39,279 nt of DNA from Acidobacteriota bacterium (lineage in GTDB: Bacteria; Acidobacteriota; UBA6911; RPQK01; JAJDTT01): NCBI GenBank assembly GCA_047514575.1, contig JAKZYH010000181.1, positions 1-39,279 on the forward strand, given 5' to 3'. The translations under genes were made by a program, and so were the position numbers. This document shows, in pieces, positions 5,400-38,628 of this stretch (position 1 is the first letter of the stretch; every line of letters begins with the position of its first letter). Below the pieces are notes generated by a model, which did no database searches, was not told where the DNA came from, and saw only the letters and a list, made by a program, of their open reading frames with translations.

Positions 5400-5666
5400 G
5401 ATCTTTCCCCCCTGGCCCCTCATTTGATGACATTCCGGGTCCCACTATCAAGCGTCCGACGATCGGGAGGCGCGCTGAGAGAGCTCGCGGCGCAACACCG
5501 ATACGGCCACAGAGGTGTTCCAAGCTAGAGCGGAAAGGGGATCTTGCGCCGCGGGCCGATTCGAAATACCCTACCTCAGCCTGATCCGAAGGCCCCGGTT
5601 TTTAACGTATATCGGGTGAGAAGACCCATTTTAGATGTTCTTGTTCTTCCAGGATTTGAGGGCAAG

Positions 5667-7230
5667 ATGTTCGACCTGATCATAAAGAATGGCACCCTGA
5701 TCGATGGTAGCGGAGCCCCTCGTTATCGAGCGGACGTGGGAATAGATAAGGATCGCGTTCAGCAAATCGGCGATTTGAAGGAGGCCGAAGCCGGGCGCAT
5801 GATTGATGCAGGCGGCAAGATCGTTGCTCCAGGGTTCGTGGATGTCCACAATCACTCGGATGCCTGGTTGCTGAAGAAACCCCACATGTTTTCCAAGACC
5901 AGTCAGGGGTTTACGTCCGAAGTCATCATGGCGGACGGGATTTCCTATGCCCCCGTCAATAGGCACACCGCCCATCATTGGATCTACTATCTACGGTCAC
6001 TCAACGCACTGCGTTTCGAAGAGTACCAGGGCTGGGAGACCCTGGCCGATTACATGTCGTTGTTGGATGGTAGCAATGTGCAGAACAGCATCCCCCACAT
6101 ACCCTACGCCAACGTGCGGGCCCTCGCCTGTGGGTTTGGCTCGCGCCGTCCCGATGACAAGCAAGATGGAGCTAATCCAGGGGGAAATCGAAAAGGGTAT
6201 GGAAGCCGGCGCGGTGGGGATCTCGCCTGGATTGGACTACATCGTTGAATGCTTCGCTAGCACCGACGAACTCGTGGAGGCCTGTCAGGTTATGTCACCC
6301 GTGAGAGGCCTCTACGTGACGCACATGCGCTACAAGAAAGGGATTATGAGGGCTCTCGCAGAAGCGGTCGAGATCGGGAAGCGAGCCGATGTCCCCGTCC
6401 ATATCTCGCACCTGAAGGCCTCCGACGCTCGAGAGGCGGAAGAGATATTGACCTATGTAGACAGCGTTGCGACCCAGGAGGTCGACTTCTCTTTCGATGT
6501 CTACCCCTACCTGGCCGGCTCCACAATGCTGAACTTCTTTTTACCCTACGAAGTCTGGGAGGAGGGCCCTTTGTTTGCTCTCGCTAGACTCCAGGAGCCG
6601 CTCATCCGGGACAAGATTTTCACCAGCCCAGGTCGCTTTTCGCTGGAGAAGTTGGTGATTGCGTGGGTCGCCAGCAAAGAGAACAGTCACTACCAGGGGA
6701 TGACGCTTGGAGAGTATTTCTCCAGCACGAAGCTCCCGCCAGTCGATGCCTTCTGCGATCTACTGATCGAGGAGGGTCTGGCCGTTCTTGCGGTAAGCCC
6801 GGGCAGTGAGGAGGGCGTAATCGCACCTTTGCTCGCTCATCCTTGCTACATGCTGGGCTCCGACGGTATCTATCAGGAAGGCGGAGTCATTCACCCCAGA
6901 CAGTATGGTTCGGCGACTCGACTTCTCGGACCCTGCGTCCGAGATGAGAAGCTGTTTTCCCTGGAGCAGGCGGTGCAAAAGCTGAGTGGTATCCCGGCAC
7001 GGCGGTTCGGTCTTCGCCAGCGGGGAACCGTCGAAGAAGGAAACTACGCCGATCTGGTTGTTTTTGACGAAGCCCAGGTTTGCGATCAAGCCAGCTTCGA
7101 AGACCCCCATCAGTATTCGGTCGGCATCGAACATGTCCTGGTTAACGGTGTGCCCATCATCGAAGGGAGTCAGCCTGTCCCCAACCTCTCCACACCCCTG
7201 CCAGGCCGGGCGCTCAGTTTTGGCGGCTGA
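5667..7230 (+). pseudogene. N-acyl-D-amino-acid deacylase (D-aminoacylase) family amidohydrolase, frameshifted near 6158-6165
   Basis: N-part [16 protein letters not shown]...[11 protein letters not shown] in one frame. C-part (THMR, VHISHLK, GSDG, ADLVVFD, GIEHVLVNG) continues in the +1 frame from ATG 6166. Confidence 0.8.
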
Positions 7231-7439: not shown

Positions 7440-8312
7440 ATGCAAACCACGATCAAGGGTCCTGTCAAGGTCTCGGGAGTGGGTCTTCATACGGGTTGTC
7501 AGGTCTCACTGGAGTTGAAGCCGGCTCCACAGAACACTGGCATCGTTTTTCGGCGGATCGATCTTCAGAACTTCGAGATCGAGGCCTTACGCAACCACGT
7601 CTCACGCGTGGTACTTGCCACGACGCTGATGAAGCGAGGCGTGATGCTCTCGACAGTAGAGCATATTCTGTCAGCCCTGTACGGGCTCGGACTGGACAAT
7701 GTTTACCTGGATATTGACTCGCTGGAAGTCCCGATTCTGGATGGTTCGGCACTTCCCTTTGTCGAAGCCGTGCTCTCCGTGGGCATCGAGGAGCAGTCGG
7801 ATGAGCGGGTCCTTCTGAAAGTAGACAAGCCGATTCGTCTGGAGGATGGTGAGAAGTTCATCTCGATCGAGCCCTTCCCCACATTTCGGATCTCCTATGA
7901 GATAGAGTTCGCCCATCCGGCCATCGGTCGCCAGGAGATCGACCTGGAAATGAGTCCGGAGAGCTACGCCCGAGAGATTGCCTTTGCCCGAACCTTCGGC
8001 TTCTATGCGGAGGTCAAGCAGCTCCAGGACAAAGGGCTGATTCGGGGCGGATCGTTCGACAACGCCGTGGTCTTAAGTGATGATGGGATCATGAATGGCG
8101 AGCTGAGGGCGCCGGACGAGTTTGTCCGCCACAAGATGTTGGATTTGATCGGTGACGTTTCCCTTTGTGGATGGCCGATTATTGGTCACGTCAAGGCACA
8201 CAAGGCCGGTCACGCCTTGCACACCGCCCTGGCGACGGCCATCTTCCGCAATCCTTCCTTTTTCTCCAGAGTCAAACAGACAGACCCAATCGGGTGCACG
8301 ACACGAAAGTGA
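7440..8312 (+). CDS. lpxC: UDP-3-O-acyl-N-acetylglucosamine deacetylase; last codons replaced by IS sequence
   Basis: MQTTIK..SGVGLHTG, STVEHILSAL, EVPILDGSA, ARTFGF, EFVRHKMLDLIGD and KAGH motifs. Confidence 0.95.
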   Translation: MQTTIKGPVKVSGVGLHTGCQVSLELKPAPQNTGIVFRRIDLQNFEIEALRNHVSRVVLATTLMKRGVMLSTVEHILSALYGLGLDNVYLDIDSLEVPILDGSALPFVEAVLSVGIEEQSDERVLLKVDKPIRLEDGEKFISIEPFPTFRISYEIEFAHPAIGRQEIDLEMSPESYAREIAFARTFGFYAEVKQLQDKGLIRGGSFDNAVVLSDDGIMNGELRAPDEFVRHKMLDLIGDVSLCGWPIIGHVKAHKAGHALHTALATAIFRNPSFFSRVKQTDPIGCTTRK

Positions 8313-8396
8313 TGTTGTTGGTAAAGGCCAGAGAACGTCAGGGATTGCAGCTAGACTGTCTGACAGTTATATTAACTGTCAGACAGGAGGATTCCC

Positions 8397-8816
8397 ATGT
8401 CCCCAGAGGCTTCCCCTCAGAGCCCACTGGAACCACGGCGCCAACAGTTGAAACAGGCCTTGCTCGAGCTGGGCGATCTGCGTCCCGGATGCCTGGTGGC
8501 ACGCTACCGCCGCTGCGGCAAGGCCAACTGTCACTGTGCCCAGTCCGGGGACCCCGGCCACGGGCCCAGCTTCTCCTTGACCCGTCGCGTGGGCGACAAA
8601 ACCATCACCAAGATCATTCCACCGGGGCCCGCGGTCGAACAGACTCAGGAGCAGATCGCGGAATATCATCGATTGCGGAGCCTGCTCCAGGAGCTGGTGG
8701 AGGTCAGCGAGCAGATTTGTCAGGCCAAACTGGAGGCTCTGCCGGCCCCTACGGGCGAAAAAAAGGGCTCCAAAAGACGCTCGCGCAGGAGGTCCGGCGA
8801 GAAGTCCAGGTCCTGA
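8397..8816 (+). CDS. ISKra4 upstream ORF (Cys/His-rich, DUF6788-like); likely the N-terminus of a frameshift fusion with the transposase
   Basis: GGAGG RBS. RRCGKANCHC...GHGP motif. A_AAA_AAG at 8759-8765. Confidence 0.75.
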   Translation: MSPEASPQSPLEPRRQQLKQALLELGDLRPGCLVARYRRCGKANCHCAQSGDPGHGPSFSLTRRVGDKTITKIIPPGPAVEQTQEQIAEYHRLRSLLQELVEVSEQICQAKLEALPAPTGEKKGSKRRSRRRSGEKSRS

Positions 8817-10108
8817 TGGGGCCAGCGGCGGCCGAGGCCCTGGACTTTGAAGCCCTGGAGACCGCGGTTCGGCGCCAAGTCTTGGAGGTGGCGGCCCGGA
8901 CGGTGGAAGATCATCTCAACCAGGATCATACGGATACCGTCACCGGACTCAGCTGCCCCTGTGGAGGACGAGCCCGGCACGCGGGTCGGCGAGAGAAGCA
9001 GTTTACGACCGTGCTGGGGCCGATGCGATTGCAGCGGGCGTACTATCACTGCCCGGATTGCGGCGAAGGCTTTTGTCCCCGGGACCGAGAGCTGGGACTG
9101 GAGGACCGCTCCTTGTCTCCCGCCCTGGTACGGATGGTGGGGGCGGCCGCCTCCATGGTCAGCTTTCAAGAAAGCAGCGAGCTGTTGGACGAATTAGCCG
9201 GGGTTGAGGTGGGGGCCAAACAAGTGGAACGGTGTGCGGAGTCCCTGGGAGAGGACATCGCTCACTATGAGCGCGAGGTGGTCGAGCCGGACTCGCGGGT
9301 CTCTCTTCCTGCGACGCTCTATCTGGGGATAGACGGCACGGGCGTGCCCATGCGAGCGCCCGAACTACAAGGGCGAGCAGGCAAACAACCGGAGGGCTCG
9401 GCCCGGACCCGAGAGGCCAAGCTCTGCACGGTTTGGAGTGCGGAGAAACGGGATGAGCAGGGCCGGCCCCTGCGAGATCCGGACTCGGTAACCTACACCG
9501 CCGCGATCGAAAGCGCCGCCTCCTTGGACACCGATCATCAGCTTTCGGACTTCGCCCAGCGGGTGGAGCGGGAAGCCCAGCGCCGCCGCTTTGAACAAGC
9601 GCCCCGACAAGTCCTCTTAGGCGACGGAGCGAAATGGATCTGGAACCTGGCCGGGGAACTGTTCCCGGAGGCGGTACAGATTCTCGATCGCTTCCACGCC
9701 AAAGAGCGACTTCATGAGCTGTCCAAGAGTTTGTATGGAGATCGCGACTTGAGCCAAGACTGGGCCGAACAACGTTGCCGGGAACTCGATGCCGGTCGGA
9801 TCGAGGCGATCCTTTCGGCCCTCGCCACCGAGACGCAGCATCACGAAGAGGCTCGAGCGGCCTATGGCTACTTTCAAGAGAACGGCCATCGGATGCGCTA
9901 CGCTCGATTCGAGGCGCTCGGGCTGTGCACCTCTACCGGAGTGGTGGAAGCCGGCTGCAAGAACGCGATCGGCGCTCGACTCAAACGATCCGGAATGCAT
10001 TGGAGCGTGCGGGGAGCCAACGCCATCATGGCCCTTCGTTGCGCTCGCCTCAGTGGACGCTTTGAGGATTTTTGGGAGTGGAAGGCCGACCATAAAGCTG
10101 CAGCATGA
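8759..10108 (+). CDS. ISKra4-family DDE transposase (-1 frame relative to upstream ORF)
   Basis: CPCG and YYHCPDC Zn motifs, YLGIDGTGVPM, LGDGAKWIWN, ILDRFHA, TGVVEAGCK, RLKRSGMHW. Confidence 0.9.
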   Translation, partial: KKGLQKTLAQEVRREVQVLMGPAAAEALDFEALETAVRRQVLEVAARTVEDHLNQDHTDTVTGLSCPCGGRARHAGRREKQFTTVLGPMRLQRAYYHCPDCGEGFCPRDRELGLEDRSLSPALVRMVGAAASMVSFQESSELLDELAGVEVGAKQVERCAESLGEDIAHYEREVVEPDSRVSLPATLYLGIDGTGVPMRAPELQGRAGKQPEGSARTREAKLCTVWSAEKRDEQGRPLRDPDSVTYTAAIESAASLDTDHQLSDFAQRVEREAQRRRFEQAPRQVLLGDGAKWIWNLAGELFPEAVQILDRFHAKERLHELSKSLYGDRDLSQDWAEQRCRELDAGRIEAILSALATETQHHEEARAAYGYFQENGHRMRYARFEALGLCTSTGVVEAGCKNAIGARLKRSGMHWSVRGANAIMALRCARLSGRFEDFWEWKADHKAAA

Positions 10109-10219: not shown

Positions 10220-10875
10220 GTCTGTCCCCAGCAGCCTCTCGCTAACGCCAGCCTCAGAACTCCTGATCTCCTGTGACTCTCTCGCAAGTCTTTTATCCTT
10301 GTCTGAAGAGTAGTTAACGCGTTATTCGAGTCCGAAGGCCGGGCCTCAGACCGGAATATTCAGTGGATCGACTCACGCTGATGGTCCCAGGAATAACTCT
10401 TTGGCGACCCTGGATGGATCTGAGTAACTGTCACGGTGTCAATCAGTTGCGCCGATTCGAGCGATCGACGTGGGAGAACTTTCCTGGGCCCAAACTGGGT
10501 TGAGCGGCTTCAACCCGCTGTAATGGGGCCAGATTAGTTTCCCAGAGATCAGGAGTTCTGAGCCTCTCGTTGACGTCATTCAGGCTCTCGTTGTTCAGGC
10601 TCTCGTTGACGTCTGTCCCCAGCGATGTGTCTACAACGATGATCTCCAAGGATGCAAAGATGACCTCTGTCCCCAATCGGCATGTCCAGTCAGCCCCGTG
10701 TTAACGTCTGTCCCCAACGAGGTCTCCCAACAATGACTTCAAGAATGTCAAGAATGATCTCTGTCCCCAGTCGGTACCCGTTGGGGTCAATGGTGCCCGT
10801 TGAAATCGATCCCCGTTGACCTCTGTCCCCAGTAGATGACCGCTGTCCTGTCCCCAGTAGATGACCGCTGTCCCT
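10220..10875 (-). repeat. Cluster of TGGGGACAGA motifs with local tandem duplications (interrupted by a MITE)
   Basis: TCTGTCCCCA at 10221, 10612, 10666, 10707, 10760 and 10822, plus degenerate copies at ~10847 and ~10867. Confidence 0.85.
10255..10560. mobile_element. Non-autonomous MITE, 306 bp, 16-bp perfect TIR CAGAACTCCTGATCTC, 5-bp TSD AGCCT
   Basis: TIRs at 10255-10270 and 10545-10560. AGCCT at 10250-10254 and 10561-10565. No transposase inside. Confidence 0.75.
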
Positions 10876-10961
10876 AGTCCTCCGGTGTGACATCGAAGAG
10901 TGCCAACGACTTTCCCGGGTGAGCAATCCGGTCGGGTAGCAGACCACCCAGCTAGACTATA

Positions 10962-18265: not shown

Positions 18266-21200
18266 CTAGTTGAGCAGGTCTTCGCCCTGGATGAAGGCGA
18301 TGACGTCGGCCAGATCCTGTGTTTTTAGATCTTGCTCAAGTCCGTCGGGCATCAAGGAGACGCTCGAAGCACGAATCTCTACGATCTGCGACCTGAGAAT
18401 CGCCGTTTCCTCTCCTTTGCCTCGCCTCATTGTAAGGGTACCAGGTGCCTCCGAGACGATTAGACCGTCATGCATTTGGCCGTCCTTTGTGATGATGACA
18501 TAGTTGGTATAGAAGGGCGAGACGACGCCACTGGGATCGAGAATGGCTTCTAACAGCTCCCTCTTGCTCTTGCCTTTTACCCGGCCTAGATCCGGGGCGA
18601 CCCCTTTGCCCTGTTGCCTGAGGTGGCAGCTGGCGCAGTGTTTTTCGGACAGTCTGCGACCGCGAGCGGGACTCGAGGGCAAGTCGAGTGCTGCCTGATG
18701 CTCCGTCACCACATTTGTCCGGTGGCTCTCGCGGTCCTTGAAGACTCGGGCGGCCGATTCACGAATCTGGGGGGATGGGTTTTCCAGAAGTTTCACCTTG
18801 CGCGGAAGGTCCAGAACAGACTCTTCGATTCTCCCAGCCTCAACTGCATCTAACAGTGGCTGCAAGTGTTGACGCCGGCTCAAAAGAACGTCGACTGCGG
18901 GCTGACGGATCTCGGGTCCAAAGATTCTCCAGCGGTCGATCAACAGTTCGCCAACCTGAGGCTCGTCGAAGAGGCCAAGGGTCCGGATGGTGTCTTTCAG
19001 CAGGTCTGGGTGCTGCTGGGGGGACAGAAGTTGATCGAACACCGGGAGCAGTTGCTGGAACCGGCCGCCTGCTAGAGATCGAATAGCTTCCCTTCTCTTC
19101 TTGGTCGACAGCATCGGTTCCAGTGCCTGTTGTGCGGAAACTTTGATCAGTTGCGCCAGTTCGAAGTGTTGTGCGACGGATCGGGCAGCTGACTGAACGG
19201 ATTCGGAGGAATCAACAAGCAGCGAGCCCAACAGACGCTCGGCTTCCGGGATCCTGAGTCCTCTGACCCCAGCCAGCTTGAGCCCGCTAGAGAGTCCGCT
19301 CAGTAGTGAGGTCTGACGGTCCCTGTTCTGGAGCGCGTTCACGCTAGCCATGAGTTCAAGCAGAGTGGAAACTTCCCTTCGGTCATTGCGCGCTCCGATG
19401 ATTGTTCCGATTTCCGTGAGGAACTTCGCTATGGGTGGTTCGGCCTCCCCGGGTAGCAGGGCTTTGAGTAGTTCAATGGAAGAGCCGCTTTTCGAACTCA
19501 ATACAGCAGCGCGAAGCCAACCATCCTGTGGGTGTCGCGAGAGCAGGGAGGCAAGAGCCTTGGTGATTGTGTGTCCTGAGAATTGGCCTAGAGTCAAAGC
19601 CAGTTGAAAGCGCACGCGCGCGGATGGGTCGTCGATCATACCGACAAGATGTTGCTGAAGTTCCTGGAAACCCTCCGCCAAACGCAGAGCATGCTCCCGG
19701 ACGTGAGGGCTGGCGTCCCGCAAGACCCTTCGGATCAAGGTGGCATTGAGAGCTGACAGTCCTTCCAGTGTGTACAGTGAGTGGAGACGCCCGTCGGCTC
19801 TCAGGCTTCCCAGACCCGTCTCCATCAACCACGGAATTGCCTGCCTATCCTGTCGTTCCAGTAGCAGACGCTGAGCGGTAAGTCTCCACCATGAGTTGCC
19901 GTGGGAAAGCAGTTTCACCAAGTCGTAGGTAGAAGCCCGACCAAGGTCGGGAGTGTCTCTGTCTCTGGGGACAGAGGTCTTGGGAAGCACACTGGGGACA
20001 GACGTCTTGGGAAGTACACGGTAGATACGTCCCCGATCGCCTCCTGCATAGAAATCCATACCTTCTTTCAGAGCATCTGGAATGAACTCGGGTCCCTCGA
20101 TGACTTCGCGATACATATCGACCACGTACAGATTTCCGTCAGGTCCGTTGGCCAGGTTGCATGGGCGGAACCATGGGTCGCTGGAAGCCAGGAACTCCGT
20201 CTCCTCTGCCACGCTACCTCGACTTGCAACGAAGGTACTGCCTCGAGGCCTCAGAGTATCCCTGTGTACAAGGTGGCCAGCCACATCTCCGGTGAACAGA
20301 TTCCCTCTATACTCCTCGGGAAATGTATCGCCGCCATAGACTGTGCCTCCAGAGGCGCCGGTGAAGAATCCAGAGGCCTCCTCCTTCCGATCCAGCTGCA
20401 GCTCTTGGAAGCGCCGCTGCCGGATCCTGGTCCGCTTTTCACGCCAGGACTCGGGAGGAGTCAGCTGAAATACACGCTCACCGTGGTCCGAGATGCTTTC
20501 CGAGGGTTGAGACACAGTGAAGAAGGGATTCCTTGCAAGATAGCGGCGCGGCATGACAGAGTAGCTTACATGACGGGAGTTGTGGGTAGAAAAGCGGTTT
20601 CCCCAGGAGTCCAAAGCCAGGCCATATTGAGTGGGACCCGAGGCTGCCTCGAAGAGTCCACGGTCGAGACGGAAGCGGAAATCGGCTCCAAGAACAGAAA
20701 CTGTCCGAGCCTTGGGACGCTCCGAGAACGTGATATCCCCCATTTGTCCACTGTTTGCAGCGTAGATCCAATTGTCGATGCAAAAGCGCAGGTTTGTGAT
20801 TCTGCCCTCCGGATGGGCCAGTCTGAATCCTGTGAATAGCACTCTCCGTATGTCAGCCTTTCCATCGCCGTTCGTATCTTTCAGGTACAGAATGTTGGGT
20901 GCCGCCGTAACCAACAACCCGCCCTTCCAGGGAAGCAGACCAGCTACTTGAAGAAGCTTGTCCGCGAAGATGGTAGAGTGATCCACCCTGCCATCGCGGT
21001 TTCTGTCTTCAAGTAGTTTGATTCTGCCCCGAGGAGATTTTCCCGGCGATGGATCGAACGGGTAGTCCAGCATCTCAGCCACAAAGGCCTGACCACGCTC
21101 GTCGAAGACTAGCTCGACCGGATCGACCACGTGGGGTTCAGCGGCAAACAACTCTACCCTGAAGTGATCCGCAATCTGCAGGCTCTTTAGTCCGTCCTCG

Positions 21201-21289
21201 GGTGAGAGCGCAGCGGTAGAAGGGGAGCACCCGATAGGGGAGAGCAGCGCAATGATTCCTAATACGGATCTCGTTACTGGAGGTACCAC
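18266..21289 (-). CDS. PVC-type heme-binding CxxCH protein (GSDH-like propeller + HEAT repeats + c-type cytochrome), putative lipoprotein
   Basis: VELFAAEPHVVDPV, FLASSDPWFRP, GPDGNLYVVDMYR, HEAT-like repeats, CASCH and SLMPDGLE. GAGGA RBS before GTG 21289. Confidence 0.88.
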   Translation of the reverse strand: MVPPVTRSVLGIIALLSPIGCSPSTAALSPEDGLKSLQIADHFRVELFAAEPHVVDPVELVFDERGQAFVAEMLDYPFDPSPGKSPRGRIKLLEDRNRDGRVDHSTIFADKLLQVAGLLPWKGGLLVTAAPNILYLKDTNGDGKADIRRVLFTGFRLAHPEGRITNLRFCIDNWIYAANSGQMGDITFSERPKARTVSVLGADFRFRLDRGLFEAASGPTQYGLALDSWGNRFSTHNSRHVSYSVMPRRYLARNPFFTVSQPSESISDHGERVFQLTPPESWREKRTRIRQRRFQELQLDRKEEASGFFTGASGGTVYGGDTFPEEYRGNLFTGDVAGHLVHRDTLRPRGSTFVASRGSVAEETEFLASSDPWFRPCNLANGPDGNLYVVDMYREVIEGPEFIPDALKEGMDFYAGGDRGRIYRVLPKTSVPSVLPKTSVPRDRDTPDLGRASTYDLVKLLSHGNSWWRLTAQRLLLERQDRQAIPWLMETGLGSLRADGRLHSLYTLEGLSALNATLIRRVLRDASPHVREHALRLAEGFQELQQHLVGMIDDPSARVRFQLALTLGQFSGHTITKALASLLSRHPQDGWLRAAVLSSKSGSSIELLKALLPGEAEPPIAKFLTEIGTIIGARNDRREVSTLLELMASVNALQNRDRQTSLLSGLSSGLKLAGVRGLRIPEAERLLGSLLVDSSESVQSAARSVAQHFELAQLIKVSAQQALEPMLSTKKRREAIRSLAGGRFQQLLPVFDQLLSPQQHPDLLKDTIRTLGLFDEPQVGELLIDRWRIFGPEIRQPAVDVLLSRRQHLQPLLDAVEAGRIEESVLDLPRKVKLLENPSPQIRESAARVFKDRESHRTNVVTEHQAALDLPSSPARGRRLSEKHCASCHLRQQGKGVAPDLGRVKGKSKRELLEAILDPSGVVSPFYTNYVIITKDGQMHDGLIVSEAPGTLTMRRGKGEETAILRSQIVEIRASSVSLMPDGLEQDLKTQDLADVIAFIQGEDLLN
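19965..20018 (+). repeat. In-frame 27-bp tandem duplication carrying two TGGGGACAGA motifs
   Basis: ctggggacagaggtcttgggaagcaca / ctggggacagacgtcttgggaagtaca. The protein reads VLPKTSVPS-VLPKTSVPR. Confidence 0.9.
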
Positions 21290-21392
21290 AGAATCCTCCT
21301 CAACCGGTGCCAGATCGGCGCAACATCTTAGCATAGAGGCTTTATGACGTCTTGCCTGAAGCTACCGGAGCTACAGGGGCCGCTAAGGCTAA

Positions 21393-21540
21393 GAGGAACA
21401 ATTGAGGAATAATTGGAAATAGTTGTGGAAAGAAATAGTTGGGGAAGAAATAGTTGGGGACAGACTTCAGTCGACACAGGCACCACTCTGTCGAGGACCG
21501 ACTCCGTGGTGCAGAATAGTGCGAGGTTGTGGGGACAGGG
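21393..21540 (+). repeat. Stuttered repeat region with TGGGGACAG motifs downstream of the HUH gene
   Basis: aagaaatagttgggg x2 plus degenerate copies. TGGGGACAGACTTCA at 21455-21469. Partial copy at 21530. Confidence 0.8.
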
Positions 21541-21641: not shown

Positions 21642-22568
21642 TCAGGAAGGCGCTGAACTCCTGGATGTGCGCTGCTCGCGAAGAGTGAAGGCCAGACCTT
21701 CTAGGTGAGGGATCGGTTGGCGTGGCCGCGAGTAGCGTCCCTGTAGTTGAAAGAGCGTGATCCACTCCTCGATTTTCTCCTCACTTCCCAGAACGAGCCC
21801 GTCGACGAAATAGCGAAGCCGCTTTCGGTAAACCCCTTGACCTTGAAATCCCCGTTTCTGCTCCTGCTGCATCGTAGAGGCTGAGATCCTCGCCCCCTCT
21901 TTTCCCCCTCCTTCAAAGCCTCGGTAGTAGAGCAGGCTACGGTAGTTGAGCCTGTGATCCGGTCCGTCGAACAGTTTCGACAACGACATCAACCCTCCAT
22001 CGGCTCCGATCTGCCGCAAATAGGCCGAACTGGACCCATAGTCTTCGGGTCTTTCTACCAGATTCGCTCGCACCGGATTGAGCTCGATGTATGCCAACGT
22101 CTCCCGGATCGCTTGCGATCCCAGGACGACGGTGGAGTTGAAGCGCTCAGCCCACAGAGACCCGCGACGCCCGTAGTTGCGATTGTACCACCTGGCGTAG
22201 GAGCTCTGAATATTCCGCATAAGCTCGGAAAGGTCAAACAGACGACGATTGAAGCGCTCCCAATCGCGATCTGTCACTAGAATCTTCTCAGGCTTCGAGT
22301 ACATCAAGGCCGCACGTTTTTCAAGCTCACTTCGGCCTAGCTGACGGAAGGTTTCGAACTGCACCTCTACGTGGTAATGGTTGCTCATGAGGCTAAAGGA
22401 GGCCACTTCGCAAGAGTAGGCCTTGGTGTAGAAGCCAATCAGCTCCTCCAGTTTGTGGCGGGCAACTGGATCTTCAAAGGGAAACCACTTGGGTGGACCG
22501 GCCACGCGCGCGCTGATGTGGTAGAAGGTGTCCTCATCTTCGATCTTGATTCGTGGGATTCGTGCCAT
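21642..22568 (-). CDS. RAYT-like HUH/Y1 tyrosine transposase (IS200/IS605 TnpA superfamily)
   Basis: YHISAR, LMSNHYHV (HUH), RGSLWAERF and YIELNPVRANLVERPEDYGSSS (catalytic Tyr + NPV motif). No tnpB nearby. Confidence 0.9.
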   Translation of the reverse strand: MARIPRIKIEDEDTFYHISARVAGPPKWFPFEDPVARHKLEELIGFYTKAYSCEVASFSLMSNHYHVEVQFETFRQLGRSELEKRAALMYSKPEKILVTDRDWERFNRRLFDLSELMRNIQSSYARWYNRNYGRRGSLWAERFNSTVVLGSQAIRETLAYIELNPVRANLVERPEDYGSSSAYLRQIGADGGLMSLSKLFDGPDHRLNYRSLLYYRGFEGGGKEGARISASTMQQEQKRGFQGQGVYRKRLRYFVDGLVLGSEEKIEEWITLFQLQGRYSRPRQPIPHLEGLAFTLREQRTSRSSAPS

Positions 22569-22787: not shown

Positions 22788-22916
22788 GTTGCCATTTGCC
22801 TTTGCCTTTGCCTTTGCCCCAGTTGCCCCCGGTTAAAGTCTGTCCCCAGTTGCCGTCCGCTAAGAGTTGCCGTCCCAGTTGCCCCCGATTGAAGTCTGTC
22901 CCCACTTGTCCCCACT
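22788..22916 (-). repeat. Stuttered repeat region with TGGGGACAG motifs upstream of the HUH gene
   Basis: (TTTGCC)x4. Imperfect ~32-bp duplication ccagttgccccc.....aagtctgtcccca at ~22817-22848 and ~22873-22904. Extra tgtcccca at ~22907. Confidence 0.85.
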
Positions 22917-23170
22917 TCTCTGAAGGAGGCTCGGAGAGATGCCAACCCTGAAACTAGGGAAGGAAGCATTTTCCGGGACACGTTTTTTATTCTCAGGGCG
23001 TTAATGTAGAGTACTTCAGGCGCTACCTCGGAAGGCCGAAAGAGTTGCAGTCGGCTCTTGCGTCCGAATGTTCGCTTCTTGGCTTATCGCGCTAAGGCTT
23101 CAATCGGCGGAAGGGAGCACCGGGGCCGGATCTGCTCTTGAGTCGACTGTTTCTTTCTACATCGTCGAGA

Positions 23171-26188: not shown

Positions 26189-27399
26189 TGTCATGTCACG
26201 TGTGATATGTCGGTATAGTAAGATACGCTTCTCCTTACGAAAGGAGGATCGTGATGCCGCAGATCCGTTACAAGGTGACCTTGACTGGGGAAGAGCGGGA
26301 CCGGTTACGGGAGATGACCACGCGAGGCAAGCACAGCAGCCAAAGCGTATTGAACGCCTTGATCCTGCTGGGTTGCGACGAAGGGCCGTTTCAGGAGCGC
26401 AAACTGACAACCGAAGAGATCGCCAACGTGCTGCCGGTGAGCTTGAAGAAGATCGAGCGAACCAAGCGCCGTTTTGTCGAGCAAGGTCTGGAGGTGGCGT
26501 TGGAAAAACAGCCGCCCCGCCGCGAGTACAGGCGCAAGGCAGACGGAGACTTCGAGGCTCATTTGGTGGCGCTCTCTTGTAGCCAGCCACCGAAGGGGCA
26601 TGCGCGCTGGTCGCTACGCGTGCTGGCCGACAAGATGGTGGAGTTGGAATACGTGGATTCGGTGTCCTACGAAACCGTACGGCGGGTTCTAAAAAAACGC
26701 TTTAAAACCCTGGAAGCGGCTGCGATGGGTCATCCCACCCGCCCATAACGGGTACTTTGTCGCCCACATGGAGCAGGTGCTCGAGATCTACAAGCGGCCC
26801 TACGATCCGGTTCGCCCTTTGATCTGCATGGATGAAACACCCCGGCAACTGATTCGGGAGACGCGACTGCCGCGGCCGACTGCGCCCGGTCGAATAGTCC
26901 GCTACGACTACGAGTACGAACGCTGCGGGGTCTGCAACGTCTTCCTGGCGGTCGAACCGCTGGCCGGTCGACGAGTCGCGCAGGTGACCCAACGCAGGAC
27001 CAAGAGCGATTGGGCAGGGTTCGTCGAGCGCCTCGCCCGCCTTCACCCGGAGGCGGAGAAGATCACTTTGGTGATGGACAATCTCAATACGCATGGCCCC
27101 GGCGCACTCTACGAGACCTTCCCGCCGACGATTGCCAAGGCGCTGTGGGACCGTTTCGAGTTTGTTTACACACCGAAACACGGTTCCTGGCTGAACATGG
27201 CCGAAATCGAACTCAGCGTGCTGGCTCGCCAGTGTCTGAATCGACGCATCGACAACCTCGAGGAGATGCGGGCCGAGGTGGATGCCTGGCAGGACCAAAG
27301 AAACAACCTCGACGCCAAGATCGACTGGCAGTTCACATCCGAAAATGCGCGCATCAAACTGAAGCGTCTATACCCGACACTTAAAGAGTGACATGATAC
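26188..27399 (+). mobile_element. IS630-family insertion sequence (1212 bp), TA target duplication
   Basis: TA-GTGTCATGTCAC ... GTGACATGATAC-TA. Two-ORF transposase inside. Confidence 0.9.
26254..27391 (+). CDS. IS630 transposase split into HTH (orfA) and DDE (orfB) parts joined at an A7 run (26691-26697)
   Basis: orfA PPKGHARWSLR..VSYETVRRVLKK. orfB NALKPW..CMDE..DYEYER..VMDNLNTH..YTPKHGSWLNMAEIE. Confidence 0.9.
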
Positions 27400-28647: not shown

Positions 28648-31125
28648 TCAGACCGCTGGGAGGGCGCCACTGCCCCCAACCGGCCGAAAGATGTGAACAT
28701 CAGCGCTCAGGCCTCGCGGCTCGTAGTAGTGGTTTCGGAGGGTCTCCGTCAGGGTCTCAACGGCCTGGTCCTCGGCAAAGATCATGGCACATCCCCCCAG
28801 TCCGGCACCTGCGAGCTGTGCCCCGATGACGTTGGGAAGCGGAAGCGCCAGATCAACGATGTAATCGATTTCCGGCGTAGAACAGGCATATCGTCCGCTC
28901 TGGGCCCAGAAATCGGCCGCTTGGCGTCTCGCTGGATCCTCCGACATCGAGGAAAGAATCAGACGATCCAGCTTCTGATTGCTGTAGGAAACAACGTAGG
29001 GGGCAGCATCTCCGTTCCGATGACGAAGAAGTCTGTCCCCATCGTGGCTGAGCCGCATTAGCTCTCCAATCATGTCCAGTCGACGCCGGCGCAGAAGGTC
29101 GGCGAACATTTCGCTACGTTGACATTCTGCAATGCCGTAGATGGCCACTTCGCGAAGCGGATAGTGTCCGAGGTCGCGATGGGTTGAAAGGATTTGCTCC
29201 AACTGGTCCTTCATACCCGGCAAGAGCCGTCGGAGATAGGCGCGACTGGCGCGTTTGGGTAGCTGCTTGAGAATCCGGTGCAGCTCGCCTGTTGAAATTC
29301 CCAAGTGAGCTGGGCTCAGGTCGCGGAAGTGCTTCAGGCCCTTGAGAGCGGCGACATTCTTCTTGAGCAATAGTTCCAGAAGGTCATAACAGGCAACCCG
29401 ATGATTGAACGTATCACGCGCATCGGCACTCTTCGAAACGCGAACCTTGCTATTGGCGACTACCAGTGACAGTCCATCGGGGAAGGGGATCGCTTCCTCG
29501 ATGCGGAAAGGGAAGAAGCCTACGCGTACCACCCGACCTCTTTCCCCGCTTCTGATTGCGGCGTGATCGGCACTCCCCCCCCGGGATCCGACGAACCACT
29601 CTCCCTCTCCACAGAGGTCGACGAACTGCTGCATTGTAATCTGCAGCCCGTTGAGTGCTACCGAAGCTTCGGTCACCGCGACGACGATGGCCGAACTGCT
29701 TGAAAGACCCGCTCCAACTGGTATGTTCCCCGAGACCACGCAGTCCATACCTGCCAGTCTGTGGTCTGGGCAGGCATGCTGAAGCCGCAGTACGGCAGCC
29801 TTGGCGTAGTTACTCCAATCACCTCGCGAGCCCTCCATCACCTGTTGAACGGTGACAGAGTTGATGAAATCCATCCAATCGCACCAGTCGGCGGTTTTTA
29901 GCAGGCTGCCGATGTGAAATTGGCGCTCCGGGAACTCGTCCGAGTCAAGGTTTGTTAAACTGACTACATCGTCGTCTCGAGCTGCAGCGGCCAGGACGAT
30001 TTCCCGACTGATGGCCATGACATTCACGTAGCCACCTCGGTGGTCCACGTGCCGACCCATCAGATTGATCCGCCCCGGAGCCCGTGTGAGTACCACCGGA
30101 CGCCTGGGACCGTAGCGTCGTGTGAACTCCTCGAGAACCCTGAGAAAGGCACGTCGGCGCTCCTCAAGAAGCTCTTGGTCGCTTCCATAGATCTGGGTCA
30201 GAGTCTGACGCAAACTCGATGAATTAGTCTCAAGGATTCCTATCCACTCTTCAGCTGGCCGTACACAGGGTGCTGGCCCCGTTGGCGCCCTCACCGAGAT
30301 ACGACGACGTCGAGCCAGCCGCCGACTGAAGACCTCCTCCGCGAACAAGAGCTCCTCGGGGGTATTGAAGGCCAACAGATCTTCCGGGTTGGGGACGTCG
30401 ACCACGCAGATCCGGGCTTTCTCAGCCACCAGGATAGCCAGCGTGTCGGTCAAGTAGAGTTCGCCTTGGGCATTGCTGGCTTGAAGTTTTCCCAGTGCAC
30501 GATAGAGAGCAGCCGTTTCAAACAGATAGAGGGATGCGTTGACCGATGGGCTCTGCTTTTCAATCTGCTCGGCCCTAAGGCTCCTGCGTCCGACCTTTAT
30601 CGGAGTCCCCTGTTCAGCAGCTTGCTTCAGGTCTGCCACCTCCACGATTGCGACTGCTTCCTGACTAGGGTTGTAGACGATGCGACCGGCCGTAGTGGTT
30701 GGGGTTTTGGGAAGTGCCGTCAACGTCATATCTGCGGCTGTTTGTCGGTGCTGGCTGACCAGATCCGTCAGAATAGAGGGCTGAATTACCTTATCTCCCA
30801 TCGTGATGATGACTTCCCCCTCAAAGCCAGCAGACTGTAGAAACTGCGCGGCACAGGCGGCAGCATGGCCGGTACCCCGTGCTTCTGGCTGGTAGATGAA
30901 GGCAACGCCGGGATGCTCAGCAGTGATCGTGGCCATGACCTGGGCAGCCATCTGTCCTACCACAATGAGAAATCGCTCGAGACCCACGGACCTGAGCATG
31001 GACAGAGTACGTACGATGGCCGGGACTCCTGCTAGCGAAAAACAGACCTTGTGCTGCTCGGAGGACCCCATACGGGACCCCTGACCGCCGCACAAGACCA
31101 CGCACATCGTGTCGTGGTATTCCAT
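28648..31125 (-). CDS. Bifunctional nucleotidyltransferase (GlmU N-terminal-like) / GHMP sugar-1-kinase (GalK-like)
   Basis: N-half LCGGQGSRM..K, QPEARGTGHA, NAQGELYLTD. C-half RAPGRINLMGRHVDH, PVGAGLSSSS, GAQLAGAGLGGC. Confidence 0.85.
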   Translation of the reverse strand: MEYHDTMCVVLCGGQGSRMGSSEQHKVCFSLAGVPAIVRTLSMLRSVGLERFLIVVGQMAAQVMATITAEHPGVAFIYQPEARGTGHAAACAAQFLQSAGFEGEVIITMGDKVIQPSILTDLVSQHRQTAADMTLTALPKTPTTTAGRIVYNPSQEAVAIVEVADLKQAAEQGTPIKVGRRSLRAEQIEKQSPSVNASLYLFETAALYRALGKLQASNAQGELYLTDTLAILVAEKARICVVDVPNPEDLLAFNTPEELLFAEEVFSRRLARRRRISVRAPTGPAPCVRPAEEWIGILETNSSSLRQTLTQIYGSDQELLEERRRAFLRVLEEFTRRYGPRRPVVLTRAPGRINLMGRHVDHRGGYVNVMAISREIVLAAAARDDDVVSLTNLDSDEFPERQFHIGSLLKTADWCDWMDFINSVTVQQVMEGSRGDWSNYAKAAVLRLQHACPDHRLAGMDCVVSGNIPVGAGLSSSSAIVVAVTEASVALNGLQITMQQFVDLCGEGEWFVGSRGGSADHAAIRSGERGRVVRVGFFPFRIEEAIPFPDGLSLVVANSKVRVSKSADARDTFNHRVACYDLLELLLKKNVAALKGLKHFRDLSPAHLGISTGELHRILKQLPKRASRAYLRRLLPGMKDQLEQILSTHRDLGHYPLREVAIYGIAECQRSEMFADLLRRRRLDMIGELMRLSHDGDRLLRHRNGDAAPYVVSYSNQKLDRLILSSMSEDPARRQAADFWAQSGRYACSTPEIDYIVDLALPLPNVIGAQLAGAGLGGCAMIFAEDQAVETLTETLRNHYYEPRGLSADVHIFRPVGGSGALPAV

Positions 31126-31448: not shown

Positions 31449-31635
31449 AGCTGGGAGCGAGCCGGGGGAGCGAGCTGGGGACAGAGACCGAGCTCGAGAC
31501 AGAGGACTGGAGGACGAGCGGAGGCCTGGGGACAGAGGTCTGCACCGAGTTGAGGTCTGCACCGAGCTGCTTGCGAGCTGGGGACAGAGGTCAGAGGGAA
31601 GAAGAGAGGGAAGAAGTGTGTGGGGGACAGAGGTT
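31449..31635 (+). repeat. Cluster of TGGGGACAGAG motifs with local duplications
   Basis: Motifs at 31476, 31527, 31579 and ~31622. Duplications gggagcgagc x2, gaggtctgcaccgag x2 and agagggaagaag x2. Confidence 0.85.
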
Positions 31636-38476: not shown

Positions 38477-38573
38477 ACCCAGGGAAAGAAGTCGGGGAAA
38501 GAAGTCAGTCGGGGAAAGAAGTCTGTCCCCACCCAGGGAAAGAAGTCTACCCAGGGAAAGAAGTCTGTCCCCA
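38477..38573 (-). repeat. Mosaic repeat: GGGAAAGAAGTC x5 with two TCTGTCCCCA motifs
   Basis: acccagggaaagaagtc/ggggaaagaagtc units. Motifs at 38522 and 38564. Confidence 0.9.
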
Positions 38574-38628
38574 ACCAACGAGTCCTGTCGGATGCGACTC
38601 GCCGTGATACACTCGACCGGGACTGAAA

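Follow-up and report, generated by a model that had tools for sequence, protein, structure and literature searches.

A young in-frame duplication in the linker of an acidobacterial heme protein, centred on a repeat shared with a nearby TIRYT-type HUH gene

We analysed 39,279 nucleotides of an Acidobacteriota bacterium (contig JAKZYH010000181.1 of GenBank assembly GCA_047514575.1, genome G000 below), a stretch that we call the window. Here, a gene for a PVC-type heme-binding CxxCH protein carries a 27-bp tandem duplication at 19965-20018. Each of its two units holds a complete copy of a 14-nt motif, TGGGGACAGASKTC, that also flanks a neighbouring HUH/Y1 transposase-like gene and forms intergenic arrays. 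The duplication is real and young, and it belongs to a series of motif-centred events that have altered the length of one linker across the genus. It is probably best read as a recent, lineage-specific, in-frame duplication of an intragenic copy of the HUH gene's own repeat, with the motif, by whichever mechanism, making the place prone to duplication. The motif is ancestral in the linker of this genus, and the linker lengths of the six species arose through separate motif-centred microduplications. These two points are new here, as are the near-constant linkers of four paralogous groups and the genome-wide association of the motif core with tandem microduplication.

The duplicated linker of the heme protein

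A preliminary description of the window had reported a 27-bp tandem duplication with two mismatches, and the units indeed agree at 25 of 27 bases. Tandem Repeats Finder (TRF) reports the same repeat (19965-20019, period 27, 2.0 copies, 92% matches, score 96). By our own calculation, adjacent units matching at 25 or more of 27 positions should occur by chance about 3e-7 times in 39 kb over some 50 periods. Both mismatches are synonymous (GTA/GTG and ACG/ACC), and the duplication lies in frame within the open reading frame (ORF) at 18266-21334 on the minus strand, where it accounts for residues 440-457 (...GRIYR VLPKTSVPS VLPKTSVPR DRDTPDLG...). A complete motif in each unit had also been claimed, and both units do carry the 14-mer, seen on the plus strand as TGGGGACAGACGTC at 19993-20006 in copy B and TGGGGACAGAGGTC at 19966-19979 in copy A (Table 1). 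The distance to the HUH locus, previously put at about 1.4 kb, is 1,437 bp from 20018 to the nearest motif copy flanking the HUH gene (21455) and 1,624 bp to the stop codon of that gene (21642). The proposed pairing of an upstream ctctgtctc with the motif is likewise present, in that CTCTGTC (19957-19963) is the exact complement of GACAGAG (19970-19976); the fold energy at this site is unexceptional (z of -1.7 and -2.0).

It is extremely unlikely that the second copy is an artefact of a mis-assembled short repeat. Such an origin would fit a fragmented bin (819 contigs, 7.87% contamination) and the low-depth X2 and X4 contigs, from strains a few per cent diverged, which end on either side of the repeat (19968/20028 and 19929/20090); these ends carry no information on unit copy number. 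However, contigs from two different studies, X13 and X1, span both copies without gaps or differences, with X1 showing 0 differences and 0 gaps from the two-copy allele over 19400-20069 and X13 possibly being the source of this assembly. Moreover, the reading frame is kept, and few-contig sister genomes show analogous duplications at the same place.

The host gene encodes 1022 residues and is assigned to the PVC-type heme-binding CxxCH proteins by TIGR02604 (N-terminal domain; 279.5 bits, cut-off 122.2), by TIGR02603 (heme-binding domain; 95.6 bits, cut-off 68.15), and by a CxxCH motif, CASCH at 900-904, that is invariant in 32 sequences. Pfam places a propeller-like DUF7133 at residues 44-443, HEAT_2 from residue 532, and cytochrome c at 890-931. 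An AlphaFold2 model built from 32 aligned relatives had a mean predicted local distance difference test score (pLDDT) of 80.7 and a predicted template modelling score of 0.80. In this model the last propeller strand spans 436-442, pLDDT falls below 50 at 449-460, and the first helix spans 469-475. The Pfam boundaries and the model thus agree with the earlier placement of the duplication between the propeller and HEAT regions, and the second unit is predicted to sit in a disordered interdomain linker. As to the 5' end of the gene, the heme frame in all five same-genus relatives (L002-L006) opens only after a TAA at the position of codon 6 in G000 (DVAPVEED...), and a signal-peptide-like stretch follows about 20 codons later. 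The ATG at 21334 (window 21317-21334) may not be the true start.

We compared the gene with five same-genus orthologues of 80-86% identity (80-88% within the orthogroup) and with more distant ones; a search of genome contigs for further close orthologues gave no more than these five. All five read CCC AAG ACS TCT GTC at the end of the propeller domain, which indicates that the motif was already in the linker before the genus diversified. Aligning orthologues, as the preliminary description had proposed, revealed one, two or three motif copies together with other microduplications. The 27-bp duplication itself occurs in none of the five. The linkers of G003 and G005 hold one motif and a 12-bp duplication adjoining it (KETPKET/RETPRET), and that of G001 holds two motif copies, the second partly degenerate. 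G004 has three copies of TCTGTCCCCA. In G002, one copy is intact and two are degenerate, and a 15-bp duplication starts immediately behind GGGGACA. The same duplication in organisms without the motif, named beforehand as a counter-example, was not encountered: 12 distant orthologues and paralogues show neither TSVP nor a duplication at the aligned place. Linker DNA was read for the outgroup L007 (from G016, 53% identity), which has no motif and on which none of our conclusions depends; the others were compared as protein. Among them, seven sister-genus orthologues (L008-L014, 47-48% identity) share an IVPR linker (IVPRDSASSPYVRPEL-like) of constant length without TSVP.

Linker length, measured from DRGRIYR to WWRxTAQ, is 56, 64, 48, 72, 48, and 50 residues in the six species. 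The same six genomes contain four paralogous orthogroups of the same architecture and 74-92% identity. There, the segment measures 47 residues in 6/6 members of the first group, 45 in 4/5 and 46 in 1/5 of the second, 45 in 5/5 of the third, and 45 in 6/6 of the fourth. This contrast bears on an unlikely alternative, namely plain replication slippage in an unconstrained low-complexity linker where the motif sits incidentally, by descent or chance; on that view, every disordered linker should vary in this way. Four paralogous groups of like divergence in the same genomes held to 45-47 residues argue against it, as do the shortest motif-bearing linkers: the single-copy linkers of G003 and G005 have 48 residues, including a 4-aa duplication, and so approach the 45-47 residues of motif-free paralogues and outgroup orthologues, which shows that the ancestral length resembled that of the paralogues. 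Since single-copy linkers are not longer and only duplicated units are extra, the motif does not behave as an in-frame insertion of a mobile element.

Internal indels among the six orthologues occur at two places only in the alignment of all 1022 residues, namely the linker and a 6-aa insertion in G005. The latter is immediately 5' of GGGGACAGAGTTC, a second motif-like site, which encodes EGTEF in the last propeller blade. Both indel sites therefore adjoin motif-like sequence, which again speaks against slippage unrelated to the motif. The second motif-like stretch covers codons ~376-381 (window ~20190-20210) and reads GGGGACAGAGTTC in the sense direction in G001, G002, and G005 (L004-L006), encoding (E/S)GTEF; G000 has GAGGAGACGGAGTTC there.

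In the first linker motif, all six orthologues use the same two codons, TCT GTC, whereas seven neighbouring conserved residues with four- or six-fold degenerate codons vary in codon; the gene-wide baseline is 30% (124/416). This invariance would suit an improbable alternative in which the motif is bound by a protein, either the HUH protein through its C-terminal domain or another DNA-binding protein. Selection would then favour adjacent sites, duplication would be no more than the mutational path to additional sites, and the intragenic pair would be a functional array. The evidence here amounts to two codons.

The motif and its cognate HUH gene

Within the window, CTGGGGACAG with at most one mismatch occurs 28 times, against 4.3 +/- 2.05 in shuffled sequences, none of 100 of which reached 28. 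The longer 14-nt consensus was derived by reading motif clusters. It has 21 exact copies in the 6.74-Mb bin, compared with 1 for the reversed control and about 0.27 chance matches per genome by our base-composition estimate. More than half of these (12/21) are on this contig, two in the heme linker and 10 elsewhere. The 8-mer core alone is not enriched genome-wide (362 occurrences, 346 expected), and the motif is a low-copy family, not a genome-wide word. Sites of GGGGACAGA number 123 genome-wide, with 73 expected from base composition. The 14-mer is genus-specific: the five other species have 2, 4, 7, 10, and 7 copies, whereas each of 35 relatives outside the genus has at most 1. No hairpin signal was found at the 21 exact sites when 74-nt DNA segments were folded (mean z of -0.007 relative to dinucleotide shuffles), and an Rfam search of the window gave 0 matches. 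A likeness of TGTCCCCA to DnaA boxes was considered and dropped; PMC6006769 likewise finds the TIR consensus unlike DnaA boxes.

The neighbouring gene encodes a 308-aa protein (P0002) with the HuH motif SNHYHVEV at residues 62-69. Among 12 HUH homologues, N63 and H64 are invariant and H66 nearly so. Its Y motif is AYIELNPVRANLV with an invariant Y160, followed by GSSSAY with an invariant S181. According to the text available to us of Quentin et al. (PMC6006769, Table 1), the key motifs of TnpA-Y1 subclass 2.1 are NHVH or NH[YF]H, YIELNP or Y[IV]HLNP, and SS in the tail; P0002 has a match to each. Profile and structure matches were weaker. Pfam Y1_Tnp matched with an E-value of 1.2e-7 (32.3 bits, cut-off 23) over residues 112-162 alone, the best NCBIfam match, REP_Tyr_transpos, scored 47 bits against a cut-off of 80, and a PDB sequence search gave 0 hits. 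The best Foldseek match was 4ER8, the E. coli TnpA-REP, at an E-value of 8e-4 on a poor model (mean pLDDT of 61). P0002 also has a C-terminal extension, being 308 aa long relative to a subclass median of 238, in which the model is of low confidence. The subclass extension is described as having similarity to helix-turn-helix (HTH) domains (Bac_DnaA_C, HTH_23, HTH_28; PMC6006769, in part), whereas Pfam detected neither an HTH nor any other domain in the C-terminal half of P0002, even at E-values up to 10.

Inverted motif copies flank the HUH gene in G000, G004, and G002, lying in sense orientation at -334 to -224 and antisense at +107 to +237. For G000, the sense copies of GGGGACAG are at -334 and -278 and the antisense copies at +107 and +182, the inverted arrangement that characterizes TIRtrons. 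The copies beyond the 3' end of the gene adjoin a tandem repeat of 15 bp x 2.9 at 21416-21460. Two more diverged HUH copies, one in G005 and one on contig C540 of G000, have GGGGACAGA within 350 bp. In the sister genus, copies of GGGGACAG type occur in the flanks of 7 of 8 HUH loci, where the flanking sequence is AAGGGGACAGTCTGTT, with the core unchanged and the 3' half different.

The terms TIRtron, for the units, and TIRYT, for the enzymes, were coined by Di Nocera et al. (PMC3733652). As far as the accessible parts of these sources go, many TIRs share GGGGWSAS, some are moderately abundant families whose members occur as dimers or in clusters, and Acidobacteria hold the most sharply defined group of TIRYTs (PMC3733652). 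TIRYTs are equated with subclass 2.1, near whose genes REP-like hairpins were not found, and group 1 of the RAYTs of Bertels et al. is the same subclass (PMC6006769 and its Table 1). The core GGGGACAG exactly fits the published consensus (GGGG[AT][CG]A[CG]). Because both the inverted GGGGWSAS-type flanks and the subclass 2.1 signatures match, the HUH locus and its motif can be placed in a published kind. The motif is the cognate repeat of a known class of domesticated HUH transposases and not a new system; what the preliminary description treated as a motif system has been published as TIRYT/TIRtron (PMC3733652 and PMC6006769).

Both G004 and G003 have DNA syntenic with the window, at a nucleotide identity of 77-90%. 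It contains 24 copies of GGGGACAG in its 39 kb, and G004, where the HUH gene is present, contains 22 in 46 syntenic kb. In G003, where an unrelated 301-aa ORF occupies the site of the HUH gene, 42 kb contain 7 copies, so that motif load goes with the presence of the gene. The genome average predicts about 2 copies in a stretch the size of the window. Arrays at three syntenic intergenic sites are found at 3/3 in G004 and 1/3 in G003.

Microduplications at motif sites and their explanation

Genome-wide, TRF found 554 repeat regions of period 9-60 covering 22,847 bp. They contain 17 of the 123 GGGGACAGA sites, in 11 regions, against 0.42 expected (Poisson P of 1e-12). We also used a detector of our own for 9-30-bp tandem duplications near given positions. 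Duplications were nearby at 38/121 motif sites, 821/20,000 random genome positions, 26/643 sites of eight control 9-mers, and 435/8,000 intergenic-like positions. Nearby microduplication is thus enriched 6-8x at the motif core, also relative to intergenic-like controls, which is a further point against slippage that ignores the motif. In this GC-rich genome, a mask of open frames with 120 aa or more takes in 92.6% of the sequence and assigns arrays to the wrong class. It was used only to draw the intergenic-like controls, and a split of motif sites into coding and intergenic by this route was discarded as unusable. Duplications starting 3-13 nt after the beginning of the core occur at 12/121 sites and at 0.5-1% of controls.

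The window contains several such arrays (Table 1). Many arrays have the form [GGGGACA][U][U] with U starting GASKTC, including those at 31528, 38530, and 38572, on contigs C660 and C663, in the HUH flanks of G004, and in the linker of G002. Motif arrays of the relatives show nested duplications alike. Array units differ, with periods from 9 to 42 bp in the window and elsewhere, and therefore the arrays arose separately around a common core. The array at 10608-10877 has 6 copies at the syntenic site in G004 and 2 in G003. That at 31475-31631 has 6 in G004, and that at 38518-38574 has 2; G003 lacks the GGGGACA core at the former site and the core at the latter. At all five intergenic arrays of the window (10608-10877, 21455-21538, 22840-22905, 31475-31631, and 38518-38574), the sense strand of the downstream gene reads TCTGTCCCCA, so that array orientation tracks the direction of transcription through four strand switches; the linker copies conform to this and a coding match at 29028 does not. 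A regulon was considered and rejected, as Pfam shows unrelated genes beside the arrays (amidase, heme protein, RecQ, sugar kinase fusion, and PCMT).

Table 1. Positions of the genes, motif copies, and arrays of the window
Feature	Position	Strand	Details
Linker copy A, second unit in gene	19965-19991	minus	CTGGGGACAGAGGTCTTGGGAAGCACA; GTG CTT CCC AAG ACC TCT GTC CCC AGA; residues 449-457 VLPKTSVPR
Linker copy B, unit the gene reads first	19992-20018	minus	CTGGGGACAGACGTCTTGGGAAGTACA; GTA CTT CCC AAG ACG TCT GTC CCC AGT; residues 440-448 VLPKTSVPS
Perfect 7-bp inverted repeat CTCTGTC/GACAGAG, 6-nt loop	19957-19976	unstranded	overlaps the motif and the AGAGAC x2 (RDRD) codons
1022-aa PVC-type heme-binding CxxCH protein gene	18266-21334	minus	DUF7133, linker, HEAT-type helical repeats, cytochrome c domain
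Two motif copies 3' of HUH gene, 5' of heme gene	21455-21538	plus	TGGGGACAGACTTC at 21455, GTGGGGACAGG at 21529; antisense to HUH gene
308-aa HUH/Y1 gene, TIRYT type (P0002)	21642-22568	minus	signatures NHYH, YIELNP, SSS
Motif copies 5' of HUH gene, sense to HUH	22840-22917	minus	within a 27-bp-period repeat (22817-22913) and a 10-bp x 2.1 repeat
Intergenic direct array, 6-7 motif copies, nested 9-, 15-, and 25-bp duplications	10608-10877	minus	upstream of amidase gene
Intergenic direct array, 4 motif copies, 12-, 13-, and 17-bp duplications	31475-31631	plus	
Intergenic array, 2 motif copies within ~5 repeats	38518-38574	minus	repeats of GACTTCTTTCCC

We favour the following explanation of these patterns. 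One repeat copy was already present in the propeller-HEAT linker of the genus ancestor, and 9-30-bp tandem duplications accumulate around the repeat wherever it sits. They would arise at or beside the motif, and two routes may lead there. The TIRYT enzyme might cleave and rejoin single-stranded DNA, or its nicks might prime resynthesis; alternatively, replication slippage might become easier once two motif copies lie close together. In the linker such duplications are retained, since this segment lacks order and unit lengths are divisible by three, and hence the six species carry 1-3 motif copies and linkers of differing length. Gaining nine residues has probably been neutral for the protein.

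More specifically, the TIRYT could act on the non-palindromic motif in single-stranded DNA near the junction between GGGGACA and GASKTC and generate local tandem microduplications through nick-primed resynthesis, or through excision and re-insertion beside the same motif. We regard this version as tentative and doubtful. A link between the HUH gene and linker length is suggestive: the three longest linkers (56, 64, and 72 residues) belong to the three genomes with an adjacent HUH gene, and the others have 48, 48, and 50.

A number of observations weigh against a causal part for the motif or its enzyme. The adjacent HUH gene is intact in G000 only. The G004 copy (L023) reads NHYR in place of the HUH motif, and the G002 copy (L024) has HIELHP for YIELNP, replacing the catalytic Tyr with His, as well as an in-frame TAG. 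Both copies look inactive, and despite this G004 and G002 carry the longest linkers. Furthermore, the six species offer at most two or three independent contrasts. Part of the genome-wide enrichment is circular, as motif arrays are tandem repeats by construction. Duplication boundaries are weakly phased to the motif, with a weak cluster at +3 to +13 and no sharp peak, and the linker is so short that any duplication within it must include or touch the motif. Change is also not fast. A metagenome scan found one contig 99.3% identical to the G002 gene, and its linker is identical; with regard to phase variation, this comparison and the single allele in two runs come from assembled contigs, which cannot reveal minor variants.

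Other coding copies of the motif add to these points. An exact 14-mer at 29028-29041 lies in sense orientation in a conserved part of a gene for a GalK-like/nucleotidyl-transferase fusion, where it codes for HDGDRL (SHDGDRLL). It is identical at the corresponding distance in G001 and G003 and was read within the gene in G004, and no duplication was seen at this site. The single exact coding matches of the relatives fall in a gene for a pyridoxal-phosphate (PLP) enzyme, at two orthologous sites in two genomes, and in another enzyme gene, also with no duplication at these sites. In structured protein regions with the motif, either no duplication occurs or none survives. The excess of duplications at intragenic motifs that the preliminary description had proposed is thus seen in the heme gene only, and the effect is clear in one gene. 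A comparison is offered by the ribosomal protein L9 gene of G000 (contig C484:3871-3884), which has a full motif in the same sense as the heme linker (ENSVPT) in its acidic low-complexity C-terminal tail. In the five relatives, no more than GTC CCC ACA is found there. The tail nevertheless varies in length in all six species (202-215 aa), motif or not, and because of this, disordered segments in the genus can be said to gain or lose units without the motif.

Plain slippage draws its support from these same observations, that is, from the L9 tails with small duplications of their own (EVPT EVPT in G005) without the full motif, the absence of duplications in structured domains, the unchanged linker at 99.3% identity, and the poor phasing of boundaries. 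Set against the constancy of the paralogues, the near-ancestral length of the shortest linkers, the indel next to the second motif-like site, and the core enrichment, they leave slippage alone a possible but unlikely account. A binding site is less plausible still. It would explain the shared orientation of the five arrays and the linker copies, and the syntenic persistence of arrays in G004 though spacers and 3' halves differ. On the other hand, the genes next to arrays are functionally unrelated, no DNA-binding domain was detected by Pfam in the C-terminal half of P0002, and G003 lacks two of the three arrays without any apparent effect. Duplication of an intragenic repeat copy at a motif that renders its surroundings duplication-prone hence remains the reading we favour. 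The earlier suggestion that the same process can remodel protein sequence is supported in part. The intragenic units do share their motif with the arrays and the HUH flanks; a single process behind both, or one driven by the HUH enzyme, is conjecture.

Several further features of the genome are recorded here. Given the number of chance matches expected, it is surprising to meet another coding match, that at 29028-29041, less than 7 kb from the HUH gene. A UPF0236 transposase-like ORF at 8165-10108 adjoins the 10.6-kb array, and an IS630-type pair (HTH_32 and DDE_3) lies at 26251-27391. Counterparts of these two stretches are absent from the syntenic regions of G004 and G003, and both look like insertions in this lineage. 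Overlapping ORFs at 5544-6248 and 5947-7230 match the N- and C-terminal parts of one amidohydrolase profile, which suggests that 5544-7230 is a frameshifted gene or an assembly error. An unbiased ranking of k-mers in tandem repeats was led by another dispersed element with a 17-bp unit, not by the motif. This element occurs on about 35 contigs of G000 (such as C457:1-100, C510:9362-9430, and C163:6136-6170) and ends ...ATAGGCGATATCGTGCGTCACTCCGTGGGGAAG...; its unit, GTCACTCCGTGGGGAAG, is present in 2 to 6 tandem copies per element and dominates the tandem repeats of the genome.

Relation to known repeat systems

The closest published relatives are TIRtrons, which likewise combine an HUH/Y1 gene bearing NHYH, YIELNP, SS, and a long C-terminal extension with non-palindromic inverted GGGGACAG copies on both sides, further copies in dimers or clusters, and an acidobacterial host. 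Copy number is low in both cases, at 21 here and about 12 genomic occurrences for the 16-mers flanking group 1 RAYTs (Bertels et al. 2017, PMC5581495, accessible part). Unlike here, intragenic TIRs, motif microduplication, and linker length variation are not described in the available text of PMC3733652, PMC6006769, and PMC5581495, and the HTH-like similarity of the subclass was not detectable by Pfam in this HUH protein. Our literature search, which did not extend to the supplements of PMC3733652, turned up no account of a TIR-type motif that multiplies within a protein-coding gene.

REP/REPIN-RAYT systems resemble the present one in having a domesticated Y1 transposase with inverted cognate repeats whose abundance follows the gene (PMC2817692 and PMC3116915, in part). 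However, REPs are palindromic hairpins that typically number above 100 and are arranged as inverted doublets, whereas the motif has 21 copies, no hairpin signal, and direct arrays. It therefore shows neither the stem-loop nor the high copy number with inverted doublets by which REPs and REPINs are recognized. Bertels and Rainey (2011, PMC3116915, in the portion available) reported clusters in which REPINs are repeated in tandem together with flanking sequence, and inferred a second cluster-forming mechanism, a precedent in hairpin-type systems for ordered tandem clusters with flanking sequence.

Intragenic REPs and Rickettsia palindromic elements (RPEs) are similar in that in-frame repeat DNA adds peptide that is tolerated at modular or surface positions (PMC3733652 and PMC10969869, in part). 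In those cases whole palindromic elements encoding 20-50 residues are inserted, while here the basal copy adds no length relative to outgroup orthologues and the gain is due to a 27-bp unit, built around a non-palindromic 14-nt motif, that was duplicated in tandem.

A different comparison is with ordinary in-frame tandem repeats of bacterial surface proteins and linkers, which expand by slipped-strand mispairing. They share with our case units in multiples of three, a location in disordered segments, and copy numbers that differ between relatives. The unit here differs from them in being centred on a motif that is common to unlinked intergenic arrays and the flanks of a transposase-like gene.

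Group 1 is the largest RAYT group, found in 150 bacterial species and in more bacterial classes than any other RAYT group (Bertels et al., PMC5581495, available portion), and no activity of its members is reported in the accessible text of PMC3733652, PMC6006769, or PMC5581495. Here, short tandem duplications have their hot spots at the cognate motif, and the start of several of them right behind the GGGGACA core suggests where the enzyme might cut. Should the link to the enzyme fail, the case would be one of ordinary slippage, in a tolerant linker with a transposase-associated motif there by coincidence. Should it hold, a domesticated HUH enzyme would be a site-specific generator of minisatellite-like length variation, one that builds intergenic arrays and, where frame and fold permit, lengthens protein linkers. 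The locus is a clean natural example of repeat DNA changing a protein, with one linker in six states in six species and four paralogues fixed.

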